Made by a program: the position numbers and the translations under genes. A stretch of 64,000 bases of DNA from IMG/VR virus record IMGVR_UViG_2839610755_000002, one strand, 5' to 3'. Of this stretch, positions 2 to 64,000 are shown one piece after another. The stretch is from a virus. Its lineage: Duplodnaviria; Heunggongvirae; Uroviricota; Caudoviricetes. Every line of letters starts with the position of its first letter. Position 1 is the first letter of the stretch. The notes beneath the pieces were generated by a model that ran no database searches, was not told the origin of the DNA, and was given only the letters and a program-made list of their open reading frames with translations.

Positions 2-1363
2 CCAGCTATTGACTGGTTTTCCATTCGCCCAACCAGGGTGAAAGCATTCCTTAGCGCGGCGCATTCGGCATCACCATTGGCAGAAATGGTTCAGAGGTTA
101 TCGCTCATATTCACAGACCATACCGCGTTGGGTGATCTGACTCTGGACGAGATGAAAGAAGCCTCCATTCAGTGGGCCGATCAACAAAATGAGGTTAACT
201 CAGACTTCTTGCCAGCATTCAGGAAGGCCGTTAGTAAAGCGGATGATGCCCGTGGAATTCTGAAGGCATTTAAGGCATTGCAAAGTCGGGTTAATAAACA
301 TGTCGGTGATATCGATGGGGTAACGGCGGAAGGCAGGGATATCCTTAAAGAGCACGGCATAACGCCAGAGTTTATTGATGAGATCAGGACGGATATGCAG
401 CGTGAGGTCGTATCGTCCCTGCAAATTGTAGTCAGAGCGTTGGCGGATGCTAATCCGAAGAGTGCGGCCATTGTTAACCGGGTTATTGGTGATATTGAAG
501 CATCGGAGGGCATGGGGGCGCTGAAACACTTCCTTTCGCGAGCGTTTAATCCTAACGGCAATATTCTCCCCGGCATTATTGGTGAGGCTAAAAAGTATGT
601 CAGCGAAGAAGAACTTGAGCATCTTGACCAACTACTTAAGCGATTCTCATATAACCCGCAGACACGCTGGCAAATGAATCAGCGAAGTATGGGTTCGGTC
701 CACGAGAAAGTGTTATCCGCCATGAACAGTGCGATCGCCAACTCATCCGTATCTGAAGAAAAAGCTCTTGAGTGGGCCGACTCTTTTATCACGGAAGAAG
801 TGGAAGAAGCCCGCGCTGGACAGAATGGTGGGATAGACCTGCGCAAGGAACTTGCTGATATTTATCGCCTGACCGGCGGTAAAATTTCGACCTTATCAAA
901 GGTGGTTCACCACCAGGGAAGGGCATATGCAAATCTTAATGGTGTTGTTGCTGTCAATTTGAACGATGAAAATGCAAGTGCACTGTGGCACGAGCTGGGT
1001 CATCATCTTGAGTACAGTAACCCAGGTTTGTTAGAGAAAGCCCGGTCATTCCTGAAGGCCAATGTTGAAGGGGATAAGCCATCTTTCGTCAATATCGGTG
1101 GGCGTGGCAAGCCTGAATGGTGCTTCAGATCTCGATTGAGTAATATTTATATGGCGAAGGTATACCCGCCAGCCTCAGTAAGTAACACCGGGAAAATTCG
1201 GCAGAAATCACCGACTATTTCCAAAACGTCAGCAACGGAAGTATTCTCTATGGCTCTTCAGTTGTATCATGACAAAGAGGCCGCTGCCGCATCACTGATG
1301 AATGGTGACGGATTGCTGGAACTGTTATTAGGTGTGGCAAAGGAGCTAAATAATGCAGATTAA
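2..1363 (+). CDS. hypothetical protein, 5' end outside window; C-terminal part carries an HExxH zinc-metallopeptidase-like motif (WHELGHHLEY)
   Basis: Reading frame is open from the first in-frame codon of the window to the stop at 1361-1363; HELGH motif resembles ImmA/IrrE- or SprT-type metallopeptidase cores; next gene is translationally coupled. Confidence 0.5.
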   Translation, partial: PAIDWFSIRPTRVKAFLSAAHSASPLAEMVQRLSLIFTDHTALGDLTLDEMKEASIQWADQQNEVNSDFLPAFRKAVSKADDARGILKAFKALQSRVNKHVGDIDGVTAEGRDILKEHGITPEFIDEIRTDMQREVVSSLQIVVRALADANPKSAAIVNRVIGDIEASEGMGALKHFLSRAFNPNGNILPGIIGEAKKYVSEEELEHLDQLLKRFSYNPQTRWQMNQRSMGSVHEKVLSAMNSAIANSSVSEEKALEWADSFITEEVEEARAGQNGGIDLRKELADIYRLTGGKISTLSKVVHHQGRAYANLNGVVAVNLNDENASALWHELGHHLEYSNPGLLEKARSFLKANVEGDKPSFVNIGGRGKPEWCFRSRLSNIYMAKVYPPASVSNTGKIRQKSPTISKTSATEVFSMALQLYHDKEAAAASLMNGDGLLELLLGVAKELNNAD

Positions 1364-1673
1364 AATCGCAGCGCCATTAGGTGGAGATGCCATTATCGAA
1401 TTTGATGATAATGAAGAAGTTTCCGGGCGTTTAAGCATTATCTCCGGTGACATTACCGAGGACATGATCGCTGAAGCCATAGCTGGGGCAAATCCCAATA
1501 GCTATATGGGATTCGTTAACACCCTTGATGCTCCCGCAAGTGATGTTCTCCGAACGCTGCATCTTTACGCTGGCTGGTTTGTTGATTGGCCAGCAGTAGA
1601 TGGTGGCGATGAGGATGATGATGACGATGAAGAGGGTTTTAGTGATGAAACAGTCAACCAACTCTTGTATTGA
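1353..1673 (+). CDS. small acidic protein (C-terminal DEDDDDDEEG tract)
   Basis: ATG preceded by AAGGAG; overlaps upstream stop (coupled); function unknown. Confidence 0.45.
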   Translation: MQIKIAAPLGGDAIIEFDDNEEVSGRLSIISGDITEDMIAEAIAGANPNSYMGFVNTLDAPASDVLRTLHLYAGWFVDWPAVDGGDEDDDDDEEGFSDETVNQLLY

Positions 1674-1802
1674 CAGGAATTGGCATAGAATTGATTGTTC
1701 AAATTTCATCCATCACATAGACGACTTCATGTTATTTGCCTGATAATTATGGCCTTAATAACCCATGTATATCTTTTGGGTTATATTCTTATCTTTAACA
1801 AG

Positions 1803-1848
1803 GTTATAAGAGCGACAATGATAAATTTATCACTATCGCTCTTATAAC
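1803..1848. repeat. 46-bp near-perfect palindrome (23-bp arms, 3 central mismatches) in AT-rich convergent intergenic region
   Basis: gttataagagcgacaatgataaa / tttatcactatcgctcttataac read directly; lies between the 3' ends of two convergent ORFs. Confidence 0.6.
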
Positions 1849-1876
1849 TCTTTGTTAGCTATAGCTTTAAACAAAT

Positions 1877-2164
1877 TTAGTTTTGAGGCAATGCAACAAA
1901 AGTCAGCTCTTGATCTTTGATTAATGCTTTTGTTTGTTTGGATGTAATTCCCACTTTAGTTTTTACATCATTGTGGAGCTTCTTATACGCTTTTATTTCA
2001 TCTGCTGTATATCGGAAGCCATTTGCACTGTTACTGGACAGTTGAAGTGCGATTACGTCATCACTGACACCCGCATCGCTTAGCTTAGCTATGCGGGTAA
2101 TAGTGTGGCCTGCGCGAGTGTTTGTGGTGGATATTTTGTCTAAGAAATTGTTCAGTTTTTCCAT
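1877..2164 (-). CDS. hypothetical 95-aa protein
   Basis: ATG with AAGAGG RBS; own AT-rich upstream region; no recognisable domain. Confidence 0.45.
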   Translation of the reverse strand: MEKLNNFLDKISTTNTRAGHTITRIAKLSDAGVSDDVIALQLSSNSANGFRYTADEIKAYKKLHNDVKTKVGITSKQTKALIKDQELTFVALPQN

Positions 2165-2382
2165 TGTTTACAACCTCTTACTTGAGTTTATTGCCAGTAG
2201 AATTGCCACTATTCTTTTGCCTCAACGAATCACAATGTACTGGAATAAGAAACTATGAGCAATACTTACGCTTTGCGAATACAGAAGATGAATAATCAAC
2301 TTATTACTAAAATGTTAATAATATTATTCTGTTACATAGTGTTCGCTATAACAATCGGGAGTTGAATGCTAATTCAATAAAT

Positions 2383-2412
2383 AAAGAACCCGCCAATTGG
2401 CGGGTTCTTTTT
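2383..2412 (-). terminator. rho-independent terminator-like hairpin, usable in both directions
   Basis: AAAGAACCCGCC-AATT-GGCGGGTTCTTT followed by T-run; begins right after the stop of the 2411-3193 gene. Confidence 0.6.
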
Positions 2413-3193
2413 AATCACTTTCCACTTCTTCCGTGGTGTTTTCTTGCAGTTCTGTTAATGCAGCACGACATAGGTTCCGGGCATTGGCTATAGCCACACT
2501 TTTGACTTCATCCGTCATCGTGCAGGTAATGTACTGATCGAGTTCTTCAGCGCGGATGATGCTTTTGCCAATCAGAAACTGTATTTGCCAGAGCAGATCG
2601 GCATCCATAATCAGAATTTCTGCCGGGCCTTCAGGGCCAGCCGGGAAGGAAACATAAGACTGTTTGCCCAGGCCGACAACTCGACAACTTGCTTCAAGAA
2701 TTGCGCGCTTGAGGTCTGACTTTATAACGGAAACAGGTTGATTTTCACCAGTGATTACGCCGTTGACATGGAAAGGCATGTAGCTTGAAATACGCTCCAC
2801 TTTCCACACACCAGCAAGCGATCCTTCATGCAGCACAATGGGGGTAACCGCGAGTTTCATCTCACCATATAGCTGCTGGCAGATAGCTGGATTGCTGAAT
2901 ACATCTAAAGGCTCACATTCAAACAGCGGCGCAATCTGCATGAGGTCCATCATGGTCATCCCTGGGGTACGAGCAGTAATGAATCTGCGCATACCAGTAT
3001 CCATTGCGCTCCAGATTGCTACACCATGCTTTTTGCTCACTTCTTCAGTAAAGCCAAGGTGGCACATGATGGTTTTTTCGATAGCCAGATCAGAGATCGA
3101 AACCTTTTCGCCAGGCACACCATCATTATTGATGGTCACTTCGACACTCTGACCATTACGCAGGCGGTATTGAATTGCTTTAGTATTTTCCAC
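2411..3193 (-). CDS. hypothetical 260-aa protein, last gene of the ssb operon
   Basis: GTG start with GGAG RBS; start sits 9 nt after upstream stop; no recognisable motif. Confidence 0.55.
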   Translation of the reverse strand: MENTKAIQYRLRNGQSVEVTINNDGVPGEKVSISDLAIEKTIMCHLGFTEEVSKKHGVAIWSAMDTGMRRFITARTPGMTMMDLMQIAPLFECEPLDVFSNPAICQQLYGEMKLAVTPIVLHEGSLAGVWKVERISSYMPFHVNGVITGENQPVSVIKSDLKRAILEASCRVVGLGKQSYVSFPAGPEGPAEILIMDADLLWQIQFLIGKSIIRAEELDQYITCTMTDEVKSVAIANARNLCRAALTELQENTTEEVESD

Positions 3194-21087: not shown

Positions 21088-21939
21088 ATGATAAATTATG
21101 TCTACGGCGAACAACTGTACCAGGAGTTCGTCAGCTTCAGGGATCTCTTTCTAAAAAAAGCTGTTGCACGCGCCCAACACGTTGATACAGCCAGCGACGG
21201 TCGTCCTGTACGCCCGGTTGTCGTTCTACCGTTCAAAGAAACTGACAGCATTCAGGCTGAAATTGATAAATGGACTTTAATGGCGCGGGAACTGGAACAG
21301 TACCCAGACCTCAATATCCCAAAGACTATTTTATATCCAGTGCCTAACATCCTTCGCGGTGTGCGTAAGGTTACAACTTATCAGACAGAAGCTGTGAACA
21401 GCGTCAACATGACCGCTGGCCGCATTATTCATCTGATTGATAAGGACATTCGCATCCAAAAAAGCGCGGGGATCAATGAGCACAGTGCGAAATACATAGA
21501 GAACCTGGAAGCAACAAAAGAGCTAATGAAGCAGTACCCGGAGGATGAAAAATTCCGTATGCGCGTACACGGCTTTAGCGAAACAATGCTGCGCGTCCAC
21601 TACATTTCCAGTAGCCCTAACTACAATGATGGTAAATCAGTTAGTTACCATGTGCCACTGTGTGGCGTGTTTATCTGCGATGAAACTCTCCGTGATGGAA
21701 TTATCATCAACGGTGAATTCGAAAAAGCAAAATTTAGCCTTTATGACTCCATAGAACCGATCATCTGCGACCGCTGGCCGCAAGCAAAAATATATCGCCT
21801 GGCAGATATTGAAAATGTAAAAAAACAAATTGCCATCACTCGCGAAGAGAAAAAGGTTAAGTCAGCCGCATCAGTTACGCGCAGCCGTAAAACCAAGAAG
21901 GGGCAGCCAGTAAACGACACCCCCGAAAGCGCGCAATAA
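21088..21939 (+). CDS. c1: C1 repressor of lysis
   Basis: 283 aa beginning MINYVYGEQLYQEF; GGAGGAGG RBS; matches P1 C1 as I recall it. Confidence 0.95.
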   Translation: MINYVYGEQLYQEFVSFRDLFLKKAVARAQHVDTASDGRPVRPVVVLPFKETDSIQAEIDKWTLMARELEQYPDLNIPKTILYPVPNILRGVRKVTTYQTEAVNSVNMTAGRIIHLIDKDIRIQKSAGINEHSAKYIENLEATKELMKQYPEDEKFRMRVHGFSETMLRVHYISSSPNYNDGKSVSYHVPLCGVFICDETLRDGIIINGEFEKAKFSLYDSIEPIICDRWPQAKIYRLADIENVKKQIAITREEKKVKSAASVTRSRKTKKGQPVNDTPESAQ

Positions 21940-21944
21940 ATTAT

Positions 21945-21962
21945 GCCCGGCATCAACCGGGC
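21945..21962. terminator. hairpin after c1, shared with the 3' end of the antirepressor-like gene
   Basis: GCCCGG-CATCAA-CCGGGC; same hairpin recurs at 50366-50383. Confidence 0.55.
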
Positions 21963-21971
21963 ATTCTTCCA

Positions 21972-23089
21972 TTATTCAGCTGCCACCGGTTTTAACAAGC
22001 CAGCATCGAGCAGTTTACGCGTCAACCACTGCTGGCCTTTACCCGTTAATTGAGGCGTCAACCGTATCTGGTAGCCATCTTCATCATCCAGCACCACTTC
22101 TTTCACCGTGAAATACCCCGCGTTGATGTACTGCTGGAACGGCACATTTTTACGTCCACCGGACGCTATCAGGATGCCGTTCTCCCGTAACCAGACAAAC
22201 AGCGCGTTTTGCTTAAGTCCAACAACCTTTGCAAAATTCCCAATCAGGATCCCTTTAGCTACTGATACCCGGTCGGCAAAATCGACTTTAGGAGCGGCGG
22301 CCACCAGCTGCTGATTTAGCTGGTGGGCTTTCTGTTCCAGAAGTTGCTTTTGTTCAGCCAGTTCGGCAGCCAGGCGTAGGGCTTCAGGAAGCGTCTGGGG
22401 GATTGCGATCGGTTGCTGTTCTTTTTGTCGGAAGTAGCTGTCTTCCAGTTTTTCAAAGAATGCCCATGCCTGATCGGTTTCGAGCATTTTAGCGTGGCGG
22501 GCTGCGCCGCGTTCTGTCCAGAGGGGAGTGAGCGAACATTGCGAGCAATTTTTACAGAGTAGTTTAAAGCTACTCTGTGCTTCAACTCGCGCAATGATTC
22601 TCCTTCAACTTTGAAAAAGTGCTTCCCTTCAACAAAGCGTACTTTGTTCTCATGATGATTTTGGCGAATACGGATTGTTTCTGTCCCATACCCTCTAGCA
22701 AGAGTCTCGGTTGTCACTACACGCACTCCCTGCCATTCCAGAACGGGAATTTCATCAGACTGATTCTGAACAACCACCAGCTCCGATTCCTGAACTGAAG
22801 GTGCATGAATTTTTTCTGATTTAACGTTAGTTGCTTTCATTCTGTGTGCCTCCTTGCGTGCTTCGGCTGCGACGGTTGCGTAATTCAGATGACCCTGTTC
22901 GAGCAGGTATTCGCGGATATCAGACAACAGGATACGGTGAACCGCGTTCTTGTCCTTTCTCCGGTAAAGTTGTTTGGTGATCATGAAGTAGTTGGCAATA
23001 ACGCCTGGTATATCCCTGGTACTGATACAGGCAGTGTGCTGTTCAATTGCCTCGATCATCTCTTCACGGGTGACTAATGACGTTCTCAT
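21972..23089 (-). pseudogene. antirepressor-like gene copy A (ORF6N/Bro-N-like middle, ANT/KilAC-like C-terminus), split by frameshift
   Basis: Two overlapping ORFs (22316-23089 and 21972-22487) in different frames; the C-terminal about 130 aa are near-identical to the intact 344-aa copy at 50391-51425; shift lies near a G4 run at about 22523-22526. Confidence 0.6.
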
Positions 23090-23625
23090 AGTCCCTCCTG
23101 AGCAGAAGCGTTAACAGGGAGGCACCAGTAACTGAGAGAATTGCGTGAATCAGTGGAAAAACGGGCAGAGAAAATACATGGGGCGTCAGGAAGCTGAGAG
23201 CGGGCCTCATCTTCTGTTGGTGCAATAACGAAGTGATAGTGACGTTTTTGGCAGGAGTAAAAGCGCCAGATAAATTCAGGATGAGTTGGGGTAGGGATAG
23301 TAGCCATATTGGCAGCCTCCTTAGACGTTGGTATGTAACCACCGCAGAAGAGACCAATCTTGCTGGCGGTGGACTGTACGGAGTTGGCCTTACTGGCGTC
23401 CAAGGTAACCAGCCTACCCGAAGGTAGCCCCATACAGCCCACCATTGTAGAGGTGTGCGTGTACGCCGATACAAAAAAAGACGCGAGCGGCGTCTGTATC
23501 GCCTTAGACTTAAGCGGGAGGCCAATCCCGGCACCCGTTTTAATGAGGTGCCTGATAAGCATAAACCGAAAATGCCTCAAGGCGCAAGAGGTCAGGTTCA
23601 ATGTAACATCGGTAGCTAAAAAACA

Positions 23626-23642
23626 CAATTTATTAGAGCAAA
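23626..23642 (-). promoter_or_regulatory. C1 operator-like site about 0.5 kb upstream of antirepressor-like copy A
   Basis: Minus strand reads TTGCTCTAATAAATTGT. Confidence 0.5.
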
Positions 23643-23645
23643 TAT

Positions 23646-25130
23646 TCATTCATTAAGCCATGCCAGAGCTTCATCAACCTGCGCTTCGTCTTCGACGCTA
23701 AGCACTTCATCCTGGGGAACATAATCAGCCAGCATAGCGAAACAATATGTATCCCAATGGTCTGGTGAGTGCAGGTTGAGTTTTTTCTTCATATCCTCCT
23801 TACTCATCACTTTCCATTGACCTGCGGAGTTAATCCCTACAGGGATTTTCGACGCTTCCTCAATAGTTTCATTACCCTTATCCAGTCTCATACGACCAGA
23901 TTTTACGGCCTCTGCGGCTTGAACGTTGGCATAAGCACGTTTATCAAAGTACAGGCTCTTATCTTCACGGCTATGCATCTTTTTACCCCAGCGTATACGC
24001 TGTACGGTAATACCATAATACTCGTACATCAGATCCGCCGTTGCTTTACCCAGGCCATCGCCGTCTATCGCTATGGTGATATTTGGGAATCGCTCAGGAT
24101 TACATTCTGCGAAAATTTTGGCGGCAAGCTGCGTTTCTGTAACGTCTGTGTATTCCAGCATTCGATAGTTGATTACACGGCGTTTATTTCGCTGGCCGGA
24201 CACCATCATGATATTGATAACGGACTTATCCCGTCCCGTACCACCAGCAACGTCCACACATGCAAGCCAGCCCCATCCTTTTGCAATCTTGACTTTCCGC
24301 CGCGTTGCACGTTCAACCTCATCACGTCCAAGAAGGAAGCCATCCTGTGATTTAGGGAATAGGCCGCGTACCTTAATCATGTACATAGGGTTATCGCGCC
24401 CGCCGTACTCCGCCAGCTTCATTTTGATAAATGCTGGCGTTACCAGCGGTGATTCCTCACTGTTAAGCGTGATCGCCGTATAAACGCCATCAGGGTTACC
24501 AGGACGCTTGGCCAGTTTATGGTGAGTATCGTAGAAATAGCCGCTTGGGCGTGTAGGCTGTGACAGTAATAAGATGCGGTTATCCTGTCCGGTAAGAGCA
24601 CCGGTGATGATACCGAAAGCTCTATCACTGACACCGGAGGCTTCATCGATAATATACAGAAGATGATCTGCGTGTTCACCGGCGAGAGCTTCTTCACTTC
24701 CCAGACGAAAGCCCTTCGGTACTACAGTCCATACACCTTTACCAGTAACCTCATAGAAAGCGGTTTCTGTCAGAACAAAATAATCAGCAAGCCATGGGAA
24801 ACGGCTGGTGGCAGTAGCCCAGTTTATCTTGATGTACTTGAATATACCGGTCATTACCTGCTGAATTTTGTTCGCAACGATAATGGCTCGGGCACCGGGA
24901 TACATGATTATGAACAACATGATCATGATAGAAGTCATGTCTGATTTCCCGGTACCGTGACCAGACGAAACAGATGTCTTGCTACCCTGTTCCTGCACAG
25001 ACTCAATAATCAGATCCTGCTGCCAGGTAGGTGTTTTGCCGAACAAAACATCAGCGGCCGCAATCCAGTCATAACGATATAGCGCCACCAGCTCGCGCCA
25101 ACGTGGATCCGTTACGCAACTTCTGGCCAT
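23646..25130 (-). CDS. pacB: terminase large subunit (pacase)
   Basis: 494 aa; Walker [10 protein letters not shown] and Walker [12 protein letters not shown]; adjacent to pacA. Confidence 0.9.
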
Positions 25131-26323
25131 TAATCATCATCCCCGTATAGCTTGCGGGTAACTTCTTCGTCTTCCTCCTCGTCTTCGTCCAGGTCTTGTT
25201 CCAGCCATGGGTCGTTTGATGCACCTTCAGTATCAACATCTCCATAACCGCCTGTATCAACGATATCGGCGATTTCTTCCCTACGCTGCTCAATCCACAA
25301 TGCGGCATCCGCGCGGCGGTTGGCGGCCCGTTCTCGCGCAACTTTGTCCAGATCTTCAAGAGAAGGGCCACCGACGGCTGTTTGCCTTTCCTCATCATCG
25401 GTATTGGTCTTAGGAGCACGCAGATCGGCTTTGATTTGCTCCAGCATCAGGGGCGGCACTTTCCCGCCATGCGCCTCGATGAATTCAGCTGCTTCCAGCA
25501 CTGACCAGTTATTTTCACGCTTTCGTTCGTATGCCAGCTTAACAATGCCAGCTTGCCCCATAGATAAAGCGTGCTTTTCCGCCTCCCGGCTTTCTTTTCG
25601 ATAGTTATTCCGGATGCTGTAAATGGTGTTGATCAGGCTGCTTATCTGCGCGGAACAGCTGTTTAGCATGCTCGCGATACGATATTCAGGCGGAGTCCCT
25701 TCATCATCGTCTTTTTGCTGATCGCGCATTTCCTGCACCAGACGAATACACGTATCCCTGGCGTTCTCCAGCATAAGGAGATGAGAAAGAGACTTTTCCA
25801 GAAGAGTGGTTTCCAGAACATCGGCCCCGGACCGACGCAACATAGCGCGCGCGGCCTTCCGCGCTTCAACGTTATCTATCAGGTAATCGCCAGCTTCGAA
25901 TTCAAAGCGTTCACCATCATCATCCAGGGTGTCGCGTTCCAGGCGATCACGTAAGGTCCGGTGGGCGCGGGTGATCACGTCATGATCATCAGAACGATCA
26001 TTTATGCGCTTATTTTGGCGCTTCGCATTCTCGACTGCGGCACTGACAACGGCATTAACCCTTTGTTTTTCCGCTATTTCAGCCGCAATGTGATTACCTG
26101 CATGTTGATCATTAGAGTGATCAATGATCATGCTTTTTAGTGGCTTCCTGACTGGCTTATTTGGCTTGCGGCTGTCCGCTGTCCTGGTGTCTTCTTTGAA
26201 GGCACGGAGATAACGACGTGCAGTATTAGGGTTAAGATTAAACTCGGCGGCATACTGTGCGATGGTGTAACCACCATCTCGCGCCAGGCGAGCAAAATTC
26301 TTCTTGTGATCGTCCCAGGTCAC
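25130..26323 (-). CDS. pacA: terminase small subunit (pac-recognition subunit)
   Basis: 397 aa; contains the pac hexamer clusters within its coding sequence, as in P1. Confidence 0.85.
25944..26131. other. pac: pac packaging site (4+3 TGATCA/G hexamers with GATC Dam sites)
   Basis: Four hexamers at about 25945-26001 and three at 26106-26129 inside pacA. Confidence 0.75.
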
Positions 26324-55813: not shown

Positions 55814-55991
55814 CCTCTCACTCCATTATTTAACGAATAAAAAAGCTGCGGTGCCGGGTTCCTCCCGGTGTCCTTTGGCTGGTTATCCACCGTGGACGTG
55901 GAAACAAGGAGAAATAATGGACAGATATAACCATTTCCCCGCGTGCGCTTAGCCGCATTCACCGCAACGGAAAGAGCATTCTTGGTGGACC

Positions 55992-56039
55992 TGTAGATTG
56001 GGATATGAACCCGTTACAGGAGAATGCTCTTACCTGTTA
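55992..56039. repeat. repeat unit A+B in non-coding spacer
   Basis: A recurs at 56271-56296 and B at 56664-56683; an inverted partial copy lies at about 56623-56640. Confidence 0.5.
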
Positions 56040-56270
56040 CGTGCTCCGTTTCGTGGAGCTAACGGCGGGTGATCAGACCGCACCAGACTGGACTTATTTC
56101 AGCGTTATGCTCATGCCAGAGAATCAAACTGTGATGGTCGGTGCTGAACTCCGACACAGGGTTGTAGCAAGCCCCGCAAAGCGCGCACTACTGTAGTTGC
56201 GGCACATCAGCCTGTGCATTCACCACAATGTTGAGAACACTGGTTGTCACGCGGCAACGCAACATTTATT

Positions 56271-56296
56271 CGTAGATTGGGATATGACCCCGTTAC
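56271..56296. repeat. second copy of repeat A (CGTAGATTGGGATATGACCCCGTTAC)
   Basis: Direct repeat of 55992-56017 with 2 mismatches. Confidence 0.5.
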
Positions 56297-56686
56297 GCCA
56301 GTGTTCTCAACGTTGTAGTTGTTATGCGTATTCTCTTACTAACCGCACACCAATACATTTCCCATCACGTTCATTTGTCTCGAAACGTGAATACTTAAGT
56401 TCGCCGTTAATAATCGCTGTTACAACCCGTATCCCGTTAAACGCCCACATATTTCGCTCCATTTACACACATTACCAGTCGCCGGTTACGGTTCCGGCCA
56501 GGCCTCTTCCTCAACGGGGTGTTCTCCATACGGACTACCGTTTATTGGTCGTTCCTGCGGTTTATGTTGTGAAGCCAGATGCTTATCTTCTGGTTGCTTC
56601 TAAGATCTGCACTTCATCACAACGGTAAGAGCACTCGATGCATTTAAGCCAGGCCCCATAAGGGAGAATGCTCTTACCTGTTATGT

Positions 56687-56762
56687 TGGTGCCGATTAAC
56701 GGGATCGAACCGCTGACCATTCGCTTACAAAGCGACTGCTCTACCAACTGAGCTAAATCGGC
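56687..56762 (-). tRNA. tRNA-Thr (anticodon UGU)
   Basis: Cloverleaf with canonical D-loop and T-loop, encoded CCA. Confidence 0.85.
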
Positions 56763-56766
56763 AATG

Positions 56767-56853
56767 TGGTGGGGAGTGATGGAGTCGAACCACCCGAGTC
56801 GCAATGACAGTAGATTTACAGTCTACCCCGCTACCCCTACGGACTAACTCCCC
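56767..56853 (-). tRNA. class II tRNA-like gene, anticodon GUA (Tyr-like), long variable arm
   Basis: 7-bp acceptor stem, perfect anticodon stem, 14-nt variable arm, encoded CCA; D-arm pairing imperfect. Confidence 0.5.
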
Positions 56854-56858
56854 TAAAG

Positions 56859-56933
56859 TGGCGATGGTGGGTGGATTCGAACTACCGACCAGTTGGTTAA
56901 CAGCCAACTGCTCTACCGCTGAGCTACACCATC
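56859..56933 (-). tRNA. tRNA-Asn (anticodon GUU)
   Basis: Cloverleaf with canonical loops, encoded CCA. Confidence 0.85.
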
Positions 56934-63116: not shown

Positions 63117-63277
63117 ATGTCATTCTTTTCTACGTTAAAAACAGCTTTGTCTTTGAAGGAGAAACTTGCTGCTACTGGTGTTCTTGTTCTGATTTGCGCA
63201 CTTGTTGGTGCTGGGTTTGCATGGGAACGTCATCAGCTAAAGCAAGCCATGGAGAAAATTGGCAGTCTTGATCAGGC
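63117..63277 (+). CDS. small membrane protein gene, 3' end interrupted by IS insertion
   Basis: CAGGAGGAAG RBS; TM segment; reading frame runs into the IS end at 63278. Confidence 0.45.

Positions 63278-64000
<723 letters not shown>

Follow-up and report, generated by a model that had tools for sequence, protein, structure and literature searches.

Two probable extra immI-type cassettes of different C4 RNA specificity, one with a frameshifted ant gene, in a P1-like phage-plasmid of Shiga-toxin Escherichia coli

A virus-derived stretch of 64,000 nucleotides (IMG/VR record IMGVR_UViG_2839610755_000002; the whole stretch is hereafter called the window) carries two diverged copies of an antirepressor-like gene on its minus strand, copy A at 21972-23089 and copy B at 50391-51425. 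An earlier note, made from the sequence alone, described them as a mosaic gene pair with a shared 5' leader and with possible translational control by a hairpin over the ribosome-binding site. The question raised by this locus is whether such a pair of leader-controlled genes is indeed present or whether the copies belong to a system that is already known. In all likelihood, both copies are complete cassettes of the phage P1 immI type with different C4 specificities, the ant gene being frameshifted in copy A, and they represent a known system in extra copy and not a new mechanism.

An alignment to the annotated immI operon of P1 maps every element onto both copies: Oc4, the promoters, a1/b1, C4, a2/b2, icd, ant1 and the internal ant2 start. 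On the minus strand, each cassette consists, in this order, of a C1 operator and promoter, an a1/b1 leader, C4, the a2/b2 sites lying over the ribosome-binding site of icd, the icd gene itself, an ant gene that contains an in-frame Ant2 start, and a terminator. The element order is the same in the immI region of P1 and P7 (AF234172), as are a 73-residue Icd with an ATGA overlap and an Ant protein that ends in a KilAC domain and has an internal Ant2 start; the central domain of copy B is that of P1 Ant. The parts of cassette A are as follows.

23626-23642, minus strand: C1 operator TTTGCTCTAATAAATTG, immediately following the stop codon of pacB, with two mismatches to the consensus ATTGCTCTAATAAATTT
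23474-23551, minus strand: IsrK-type leader RNA (Rfam isrK, RF01394, 60.8 bits; gathering score 50)
23519-23525 (in a hairpin loop) and 23502-23509, minus strand: decoy sites a1 and b1, respectively, within the leader
23479-23495, minus strand: stem of the intrinsic terminator of the leader, followed by a U run (terminator scan)
23362-23449, minus strand: C4 antisense RNA (Rfam C4, RF01695, 75.9 bits; gathering score 45; predicted fold)
23397-23405 and 23384-23390, minus strand: C4 recognition elements b' CCUUGGACG and a' AGGCCAA, by mapped coordinates
23351-23357 and 23319-23327, minus strand: C4 targets a2 and b2, with 7- and 9-nt complementarity to the cassette's own C4
23086-23307, minus strand: icd', encoding a 73-residue Icd-like cell-division inhibitor (PHROG 1426, E = 1e-45)
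21972-23089, minus strand: ant' pseudogene of the ORF6N plus KilAC type, in fragments 22316-23089 (257 residues) and 21972-22487 (171 residues)
21943-21964, no strand assigned: GC-rich terminator hairpin separating ant' from the convergent c1, with 9 pairs and the tail AATTTATT on the minus strand

The operator of cassette A can be aligned with Oc4/Op51 of P1, and the related modules of RCS47 (FO818745) and JL22 (ON018986) have the identical operator. A possible promoter, TTGCGC-18-TATGCT at 23587-23558, was spotted by eye only. Against the Rfam family c4-a1b1 (RF03163), the leader scores 20.5 bits, which is below the threshold. The b2 target overlaps the icd' ribosome-binding site AAGGAGG, the stop codon of icd' overlaps the ATG of ant' (ATGA), and an Ant2-type internal start is located at 22838-22840. 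In an identical plasmid, the icd' product is labelled as an Icd-like protein by NCBI. In annotation, the copy A locus is thus to be read as a C4 RNA, a leader RNA, icd and an ant pseudogene, and not as a gene with a 5' leader. An NCBI pseudo-coding sequence named "ash family protein" ("incomplete, missing C-terminus") spans the C4 and IsrK-type RNA genes at window positions 23350-23650; in all probability, RNA genes have here been called as protein-coding.

Cassette B has the corresponding parts.

51960-51976 (minus strand) and 51944-51960 (plus strand): two overlapping inverted C1 operators, with one and three mismatches to the consensus, aligning with P1 Oc4
51838-51896, minus strand: a1b1 leader RNA (Rfam c4-a1b1, 52 bits at 51844-51896; gathering score 46.7)
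51852-51858 and 51838-51845, minus strand: decoy sites a1 and b1, respectively, within the leader
51691-51776, minus strand: C4 antisense RNA (Rfam C4, 70.7 bits; gathering score 45)
51726-51736 and 51714-51720, minus strand: C4 recognition elements b' UUUCAUGUACG and a' CUGUCAA, by mapped coordinates
51684-51690 and 51652-51662, minus strand: C4 targets a2 and b2, with 7- and 11-nt complementarity to the cassette's own C4
51422-51643, minus strand: icd, 73 residues (PHROG 1426, E = 6e-46; Icd-like according to NCBI)
50391-51425, minus strand: intact ant, 344 residues, with a P1-type centre and KilAC (Pfam ANT, E = 7e-32; aligned with Ant1 of P1 and P7)
50364-50385, no strand assigned: two-way hairpin terminator between ant and the convergent baseplate genes, flagged on both strands, with a run of seven T on the plus strand

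A promoter-like site, TTGATC-17-TATAGT, was found by the scan at 51918-51890. The leader of cassette B reaches 43.1 bits against Rfam isrK, below the threshold of that family. Here, too, b2 overlaps the icd ribosome-binding site, and the stop codon of icd overlaps the ant start (ATGA); the Ant2-type internal start at 51174-51176, an ATG at codon 84, is preceded by a GGAGG ribosome-binding site. The two Icd proteins are identical at 65 of 74 aligned positions (73 residues plus the stop), and eight of the nine differences fall within the first nine residues. The same terminator hairpin, ATGCCCGG-TTGA-TGCCGGGCAT, follows both ant genes (21943-21964 and 50364-50385), as had been noticed before, and it also follows the ant gene of most related modules, whereas it is absent after ant in P1 and P7.

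The description in the earlier note was borne out in part, the sequence resemblance between the copies being real. By blastn, 22831-23280 matches 51167-51616 (450 bp, 96.7% identity) and 21935-22310 matches 50356-50729 (376 bp, 93.4%), with a weaker 59-bp match (83%) between 22348-22406 and 50746-50804; a window-wide comparison found no third copy of the shared blocks within the window. The first 76 residues of the Ant proteins, which had been called near-identical, agree at 76 of 76 positions. The common C-terminal part, put at about 130 residues, is identical at 106 of the last 110, and no DNA similarity is detectable by blastn between the central parts, in keeping with the claim that the centres differ. 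C1 operators had been placed about 0.5 kb upstream, and consensus matches do lie about 550 bp before each ant ATG; in total, the consensus scan gives 18 matches in the window versus 0.22 expected. The 3' edge of the 450-bp block carries the Ant2 start, and its 5' edge lies just past the region of b2 and the icd start that determines specificity. The supposed 5' leader of about 190 bp is shared (191 bp before the ATG), but it is coding sequence, namely icd codons 10-73. Nor is copy A a single gene: the 1118 nt of 21972-23089 split into two open reading frames (ORFs) of different frame.

The two cassettes differ in the elements by which C4 recognises its targets. In cassette A, b' CCUUGGACG pairs with b2 CGUCUAAGG and b1 GUCUAAGG, and a' AGGCCAA pairs with a1 UUGGCCU and a2 UUGGUCU. 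In cassette B, the partner of b' UUUCAUGUACG is b2 UGUACAUGAGG, and that of a' CUGUCAA is UUGACAG. In short form, the specificities are b' CCUUGGAC and a' GGCCAA for A, and b' CAUGUAC and a' CUGUCAA for B; b' is CACUAAC in P1, and P7 has b' CACAAUC and a' CUGCUAA. Compared with P1 and P7, b' is new in both copies and a' is new in A. Each C4 fits only its own targets, mismatched combinations giving short chance matches. Since the C4 specificities differ, cassettes A and B should not cross-repress. Whole-molecule RNAduplex energies of C4 and its targets were discarded as a measure of specificity; they were uninformative (about -30 to -44 kcal/mol for all pairs) because the C4 fold is ignored, and loop-restricted complementarity and covariation were used instead.

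At least 12 combinations of b' and a' occur among 88 related modules (from 79 viral contigs plus references), each with matching targets. Covariation was counted on class-specific alignments of 13 P1-class and 20 IsrK-class modules (33 in total), because the elements of the two RNA classes did not line up with one another in a joint alignment. In the copy A class, the pairings of C4 with a2/b2 and of a1/b1 with C4 are both 100% paired, with 7 doubly changed pairs each; in the copy B class, they are 99.6% and 100% paired, respectively, with 8 doubly changed pairs each. No single-sided changes were found in the C4 pairings of the 33 modules, all substitutions being compensatory, and in the P1 class almost all sequence variation falls in the six pairing elements. 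None of 500 shuffles reached the observed score, and partners slid by 1-3 columns were at most 56% paired. These data are strong comparative evidence that both cassettes, including that of copy A, carry a working C4 system of differing specificity.

In P1 itself, C4 reportedly blocks the translation of icd and hence of ant, Ant is said to inactivate C1, and C1 to repress the operon. The P1 immI region is subject to Rho-dependent polarity and to icd-ant coupling, and its C4 is processed by RNase P. By analogy, C1 would repress each operon of the window by binding to its operator. The C4 RNA would be excised from the operon transcript, and its a' and b' elements would pair with a2 and b2 and block icd translation; no antirepressor would then be made, because ant depends on icd translation (ATGA overlap). 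Once made, Ant would bind and inactivate the C1 repressor. The a1/b1 leader would compete with a2/b2 for C4, the leader of copy A being of the IsrK type with its own terminator. Copy A would now supply only C4, the leader RNA and Icd'. The known mechanism is extended and not changed.

On sequence grounds, the ant gene of copy A is inactivated in this plasmid lineage by a deletion of one nucleotide, while its RNAs and icd' appear intact. Alignment to the intact alleles of RCS47 (371 residues) and JL22 (370 residues), with 673R5 also aligned, indicates that one A is absent from the window in CTCACCCTC, between 22526 and 22525. The frameshift lies after the Ant2 start and truncates ORF6N, of which the match stops at position 62 of the 86 in the profile. 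NCBI marks the same interval of plasmid pF1273-3 as "frameshifted". The deletion is present in seven independent complete plasmid assemblies and, being common to them, is a real, inherited mutation. Plasmid pE2-2, which is 99.8% identical, has one extra base and an intact protein of 372 residues, and the ant ORF measures 370-372 residues in 57 of the 88 related modules. Further independent disruptions of copy A-type ant genes were found, namely an ISSen4 insertion in another plasmid and truncated alleles in viral contigs. Repeated loss of the extra antirepressor, by a one-nucleotide deletion here and by insertion sequences (IS) elsewhere, hints at selection on the circuit. In pO111_2 (NC_013370.1, from O111:H-), an IS1203 element at 1442-2655 is located between icd' and the 5' end of a copy A-type ant.

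These findings have to be weighed against the model of the earlier note, according to which the copies are two functional paralogues and the GGAGG site of ant is sequestered by an upstream CCUCCCUG hairpin as the main translational control. A CCUCC/GGAGG stem is indeed present in the predicted minimum free energy (MFE) fold of both copies. The isolated hairpin is calculated at -8.3 kcal/mol, the ribosome-binding site is mostly paired in the ensemble (probability of being unpaired about 0.15), and an opening of the hairpin by ribosomes finishing icd would suit the known dependence of ant on icd translation. However, the folding energy of the whole region is no better than that of shuffles (z = 0.02-0.7), and 6.5-11.5% of upstream-shuffled controls occlude the site equally. 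The MFE fold of the P1 orthologue pairs the site with downstream sequence, and occlusion is not unusual there. Constraint on the two arms comes from icd coding or from the ribosome-binding site itself, and covariation gives no evidence for the hairpin because the junction is essentially invariant in the 88 modules. Moreover, the full-length protein cannot be made from copy A. The hairpin is a structure that may form in the predicted folds and would agree with a translation of ant that depends on icd, but it is not supported, and the model as a whole is unlikely. The main post-transcriptional control is probably exerted, as in P1, by the C4 antisense RNA and by coupling to icd translation.

That the frameshift of copy A is a sequencing or assembly error and the gene really intact is scarcely credible. 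Over 21900-23700, the window is 100% identical, deletion included, to seven separate complete plasmid records of E. coli, most of them from strains that produce Shiga toxin (e.g. pF1273-3, O157:H7); the absent base is an A outside any homopolymer run; and c1, icd' and pacB are intact in the window. The record of phage 673R5 (99.3% identical) could be taken as a hint of error, for it shows another one-base gap, located in a C run 25 nt away, and its c1 is in pieces as well; both features suggest errors in that particular record. A very improbable alternative is that copy A still gives antirepressor activity, either by programmed frameshifting or through an ORF6N fragment together with a 171-residue KilAC fragment from ATG 22487, loosely like Ant1 and Ant2. 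The 171-residue ORF does contain a complete KilAC domain, and P1 Ant is annotated as normally working as a complex of two products of one gene. Yet no slippery heptamer (X XXY YYZ) was seen by inspection at 22518-22534 (CUC CCC UCU), where relatives are in frame. Likewise, inspection revealed no ribosome-binding site before ATG 22487, and re-initiation coupling at this codon is unlikely because the upstream ORF ends 171 nt past it. Intact alleles also predominate in the relatives, and the IS insertions in the same gene of other lineages look like loss and not like recoding.

The reading of both copies as immI-type cassettes has points against it as well. Judged by the consensus, copy A has a weak promoter, which the promoter scan missed. 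The expression and processing of C4, the repression of icd and ant, and the binding of Ant to C1 are all taken over from P1 by analogy. The RNAs and icd' left in copy A may be selectively kept, or they may simply be decaying. Partial cross-talk is possible since a' of copy B is the same as a' of the canonical immI cassette of pF1273-3.

The domain searches support the assignment of the proteins to the P1 Ant antirepressor family; both are mosaic, with constant N-terminal and KilAC parts around an exchangeable centre. The Pfam domain ANT/KilAC (PF03374), expected by the earlier note at the C-terminus, is found in copy B (110.4 bits) and in the C-terminal fragment of copy A (108.5 bits; cut-off 25.3). 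ORF6N (PF10543) is added in copy A only (52.2 bits, cut-off 27.8; 66 bits over positions 4-86 in the intact RCS47 protein); copy B has no ORF6N match in Pfam even at E = 10. The P1-type centre and the 83-residue N-terminal extension match nothing in Pfam at E = 10 or in a PDB sequence search. No significant match between the two centres emerged from an hhalign comparison (probability 0.3%), although the alignments were shallow (Neff 1.4) and PHROG 1726 and PHROG 4936 each match both centres, so that remote homology of the centres is still possible. The suggestion of domain shuffling in a C1-controlled antirepressor family therefore stands as regards the P1 Ant family, the mosaic build and the C1 operators, but not as regards an intact gene in copy A. 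In phage antirepressors, N-terminal domains of the KilA-N, Bro-N and ORF6N types are reportedly shuffled with KilAC/ANT C-terminal domains. The window fits such modular proteins, with ORF6N plus ANT in copy A, an ANT C-terminal domain in copy B, and exchange of the N-terminal domain on a constant KilAC part. It differs in that the exchange is between paralogues on one replicon with near-identical flanks, and in that an extra, Ant1-specific extension of 83 residues without Pfam match is present.

The mosaic is best explained by recombination or gene conversion between co-resident cassettes, which would act through the block of icd 3' and ant 5' sequence and the block of KilAC and terminator. 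The shared blocks of A and B are 93-97% identical to each other, but match the canonical immI of pF1273-3 at only 80-87%. Related modules show each of the four possible pairings of a C4 class with a central-domain type, which fits recombination through conserved flanks. Co-resident modules differ in C4 type in all eight genomes or contigs sampled.

The window is part of a P1-like phage-plasmid of Shiga-toxin E. coli. Its landmarks include pacB at 23646-25130 (minus strand) and the c1 repressor gene at 21088-21939 (plus strand). The latter ORF is presumably nearly identical to the P1 C1 repressor, and NCBI labels the same protein "phage repressor protein C1" in matching plasmids. Plasmid pF1273-3 (NZ_CP038378.1) is near-identical to the window, base 1 of which corresponds to its base 25653. 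P1-like plasmids act as carriers in the spread of resistance and virulence genes in E. coli that produces Shiga toxin.

Both cassettes are located elsewhere than the P1 operon, which lies between sim and kilA. Cassette B lies between ban-side genes and convergent baseplate genes. Cassette A, of 1.7 kb, is inserted between pacB and c1, where P1 has a gap of only 24 bp. Copy A further differs from P1 immI in its IsrK-type leader with a strong terminator, its ORF6N centre and its frameshift, and the N-terminal extension of Ant is visibly unlike that of P1 in the alignment. An insertion between pacB and c1 is also present in RCS47, JL22, 673R5 and about 250 complete E. coli genomes. RCS47, JL22 and the pTZ20_1P insertion share the locus and the module, RCS47 being 92.6% and JL22 88.1% identical over 21900-23700; besides being intact, the RCS47 and JL22 alleles have other b' and a' types of C4. 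Venturini et al. 2019 (PMC6906374) mention the insertion and give its content as ant together with two short ORFs; in the literature found on it the C4 and IsrK RNAs and icd are not described.

The leader of copy A also links the cassette to lambdoid prophages. In the isrK-orf45-anrP locus of Gifsy-1 (Hershko-Shalev et al. 2016, PMC4825925), as in copy A, isrK is followed by C4, an order also found in the Shiga toxin 2 (Stx2) phage F004, and the antirepressor is controlled through an overlapping upstream ORF (ATGA). In contrast to copy A, Gifsy-1 lacks icd, its shorter antirepressor gene comes directly after C4, and Gifsy-1 and the Stx phages are lambdoid prophages under repressors other than C1. 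The experimentally studied locus of Gifsy-1 (NC_010392, 34076-34330) is itself a cassette of the C4 type: Rfam C4 scores 69 bits exactly at "orf45", and isrK is also above the c4-a1b1 threshold (48.1 bits). The published mutated bases G28 and G31 lie in a1 (UUGGCGU), C159 and C162 lie in a' (ACGCCAA), and b2 (AUCACCG) abuts the ribosome-binding site of anrP. From this placement of C4, a1 and a', IsrK looks like an a1b1 leader that counteracts C4. The term "phage P1" does not occur in the 2016 paper on Gifsy-1, and IsrK and c4 are listed as two distinct systems in a review of 2025. One and the same element is covered by two Rfam families, isrK (RF01394) and c4-a1b1 (RF03163), which cross-match at 23474-23564, 51802-51896 and in Gifsy-1; the Rfam clan CL00128 holds C4 and c4-a1b1 but not isrK. 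The tandem of IsrK and C4 at window positions 23290-23550 is about 80% identical to many Stx2a-converting lambdoid phages (e.g. LC710661, 2000-2889), in which it precedes a 215-residue hypothetical or "regulatory" protein and not icd-ant. Such similarity suggests that lambdoid and P1-like phages have exchanged the RNA part.

Beyond the window, pF1273-3 carries a third, canonical immI cassette at 511-3100, with Icd, a 347-residue P1-type Ant and then kilA; its b' CACAAUC is P7-like and its a' CUGUCAA is P1-like. The replicon therefore probably has three cassettes of differing specificity. Copy B is not the canonical immI cassette, for the latter is located next to kilA elsewhere in pF1273-3. 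Four icd loci were found in one IMG/VR genome. A broader proposal, which is tentative and rather doubtful as a whole, is that the two to four co-resident immI cassettes of P1-like phage-plasmids form a combinatorial C4 immunity code (a' by b'), re-assorted together with the Ant centres by recombination through the icd/ant-5' and KilAC blocks, that the Gifsy-1 IsrK is the a1b1 leader of such a cassette and a C4 sponge, and that cassette A has been reduced in the lineage of the window to an "immunity-only" unit of C4, leader and Icd. If so, cassette A could still silence incoming phages of the same code but no longer induce its own prophage. Independently of this proposal, several C4 specificities on a single plasmid prophage would shape which P1-like elements coexist or induce one another.

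Two further features of the window concern mobile elements and transfer RNA (tRNA) genes. Compared with pF1273-3, the window has an extra IS3-family element at 46530-47839, which contains an Rfam ALIL frameshift pseudoknot (46865-46981, 121.5 bits) and the site of which is empty in pF1273-3; a second, partial IS3-family copy at 63277-64000 runs off the window end. Four tRNA genes are located on the minus strand at 54669-56933, near the region of ban (dnaB-like helicase), as is likewise the case in P1-like genomes.

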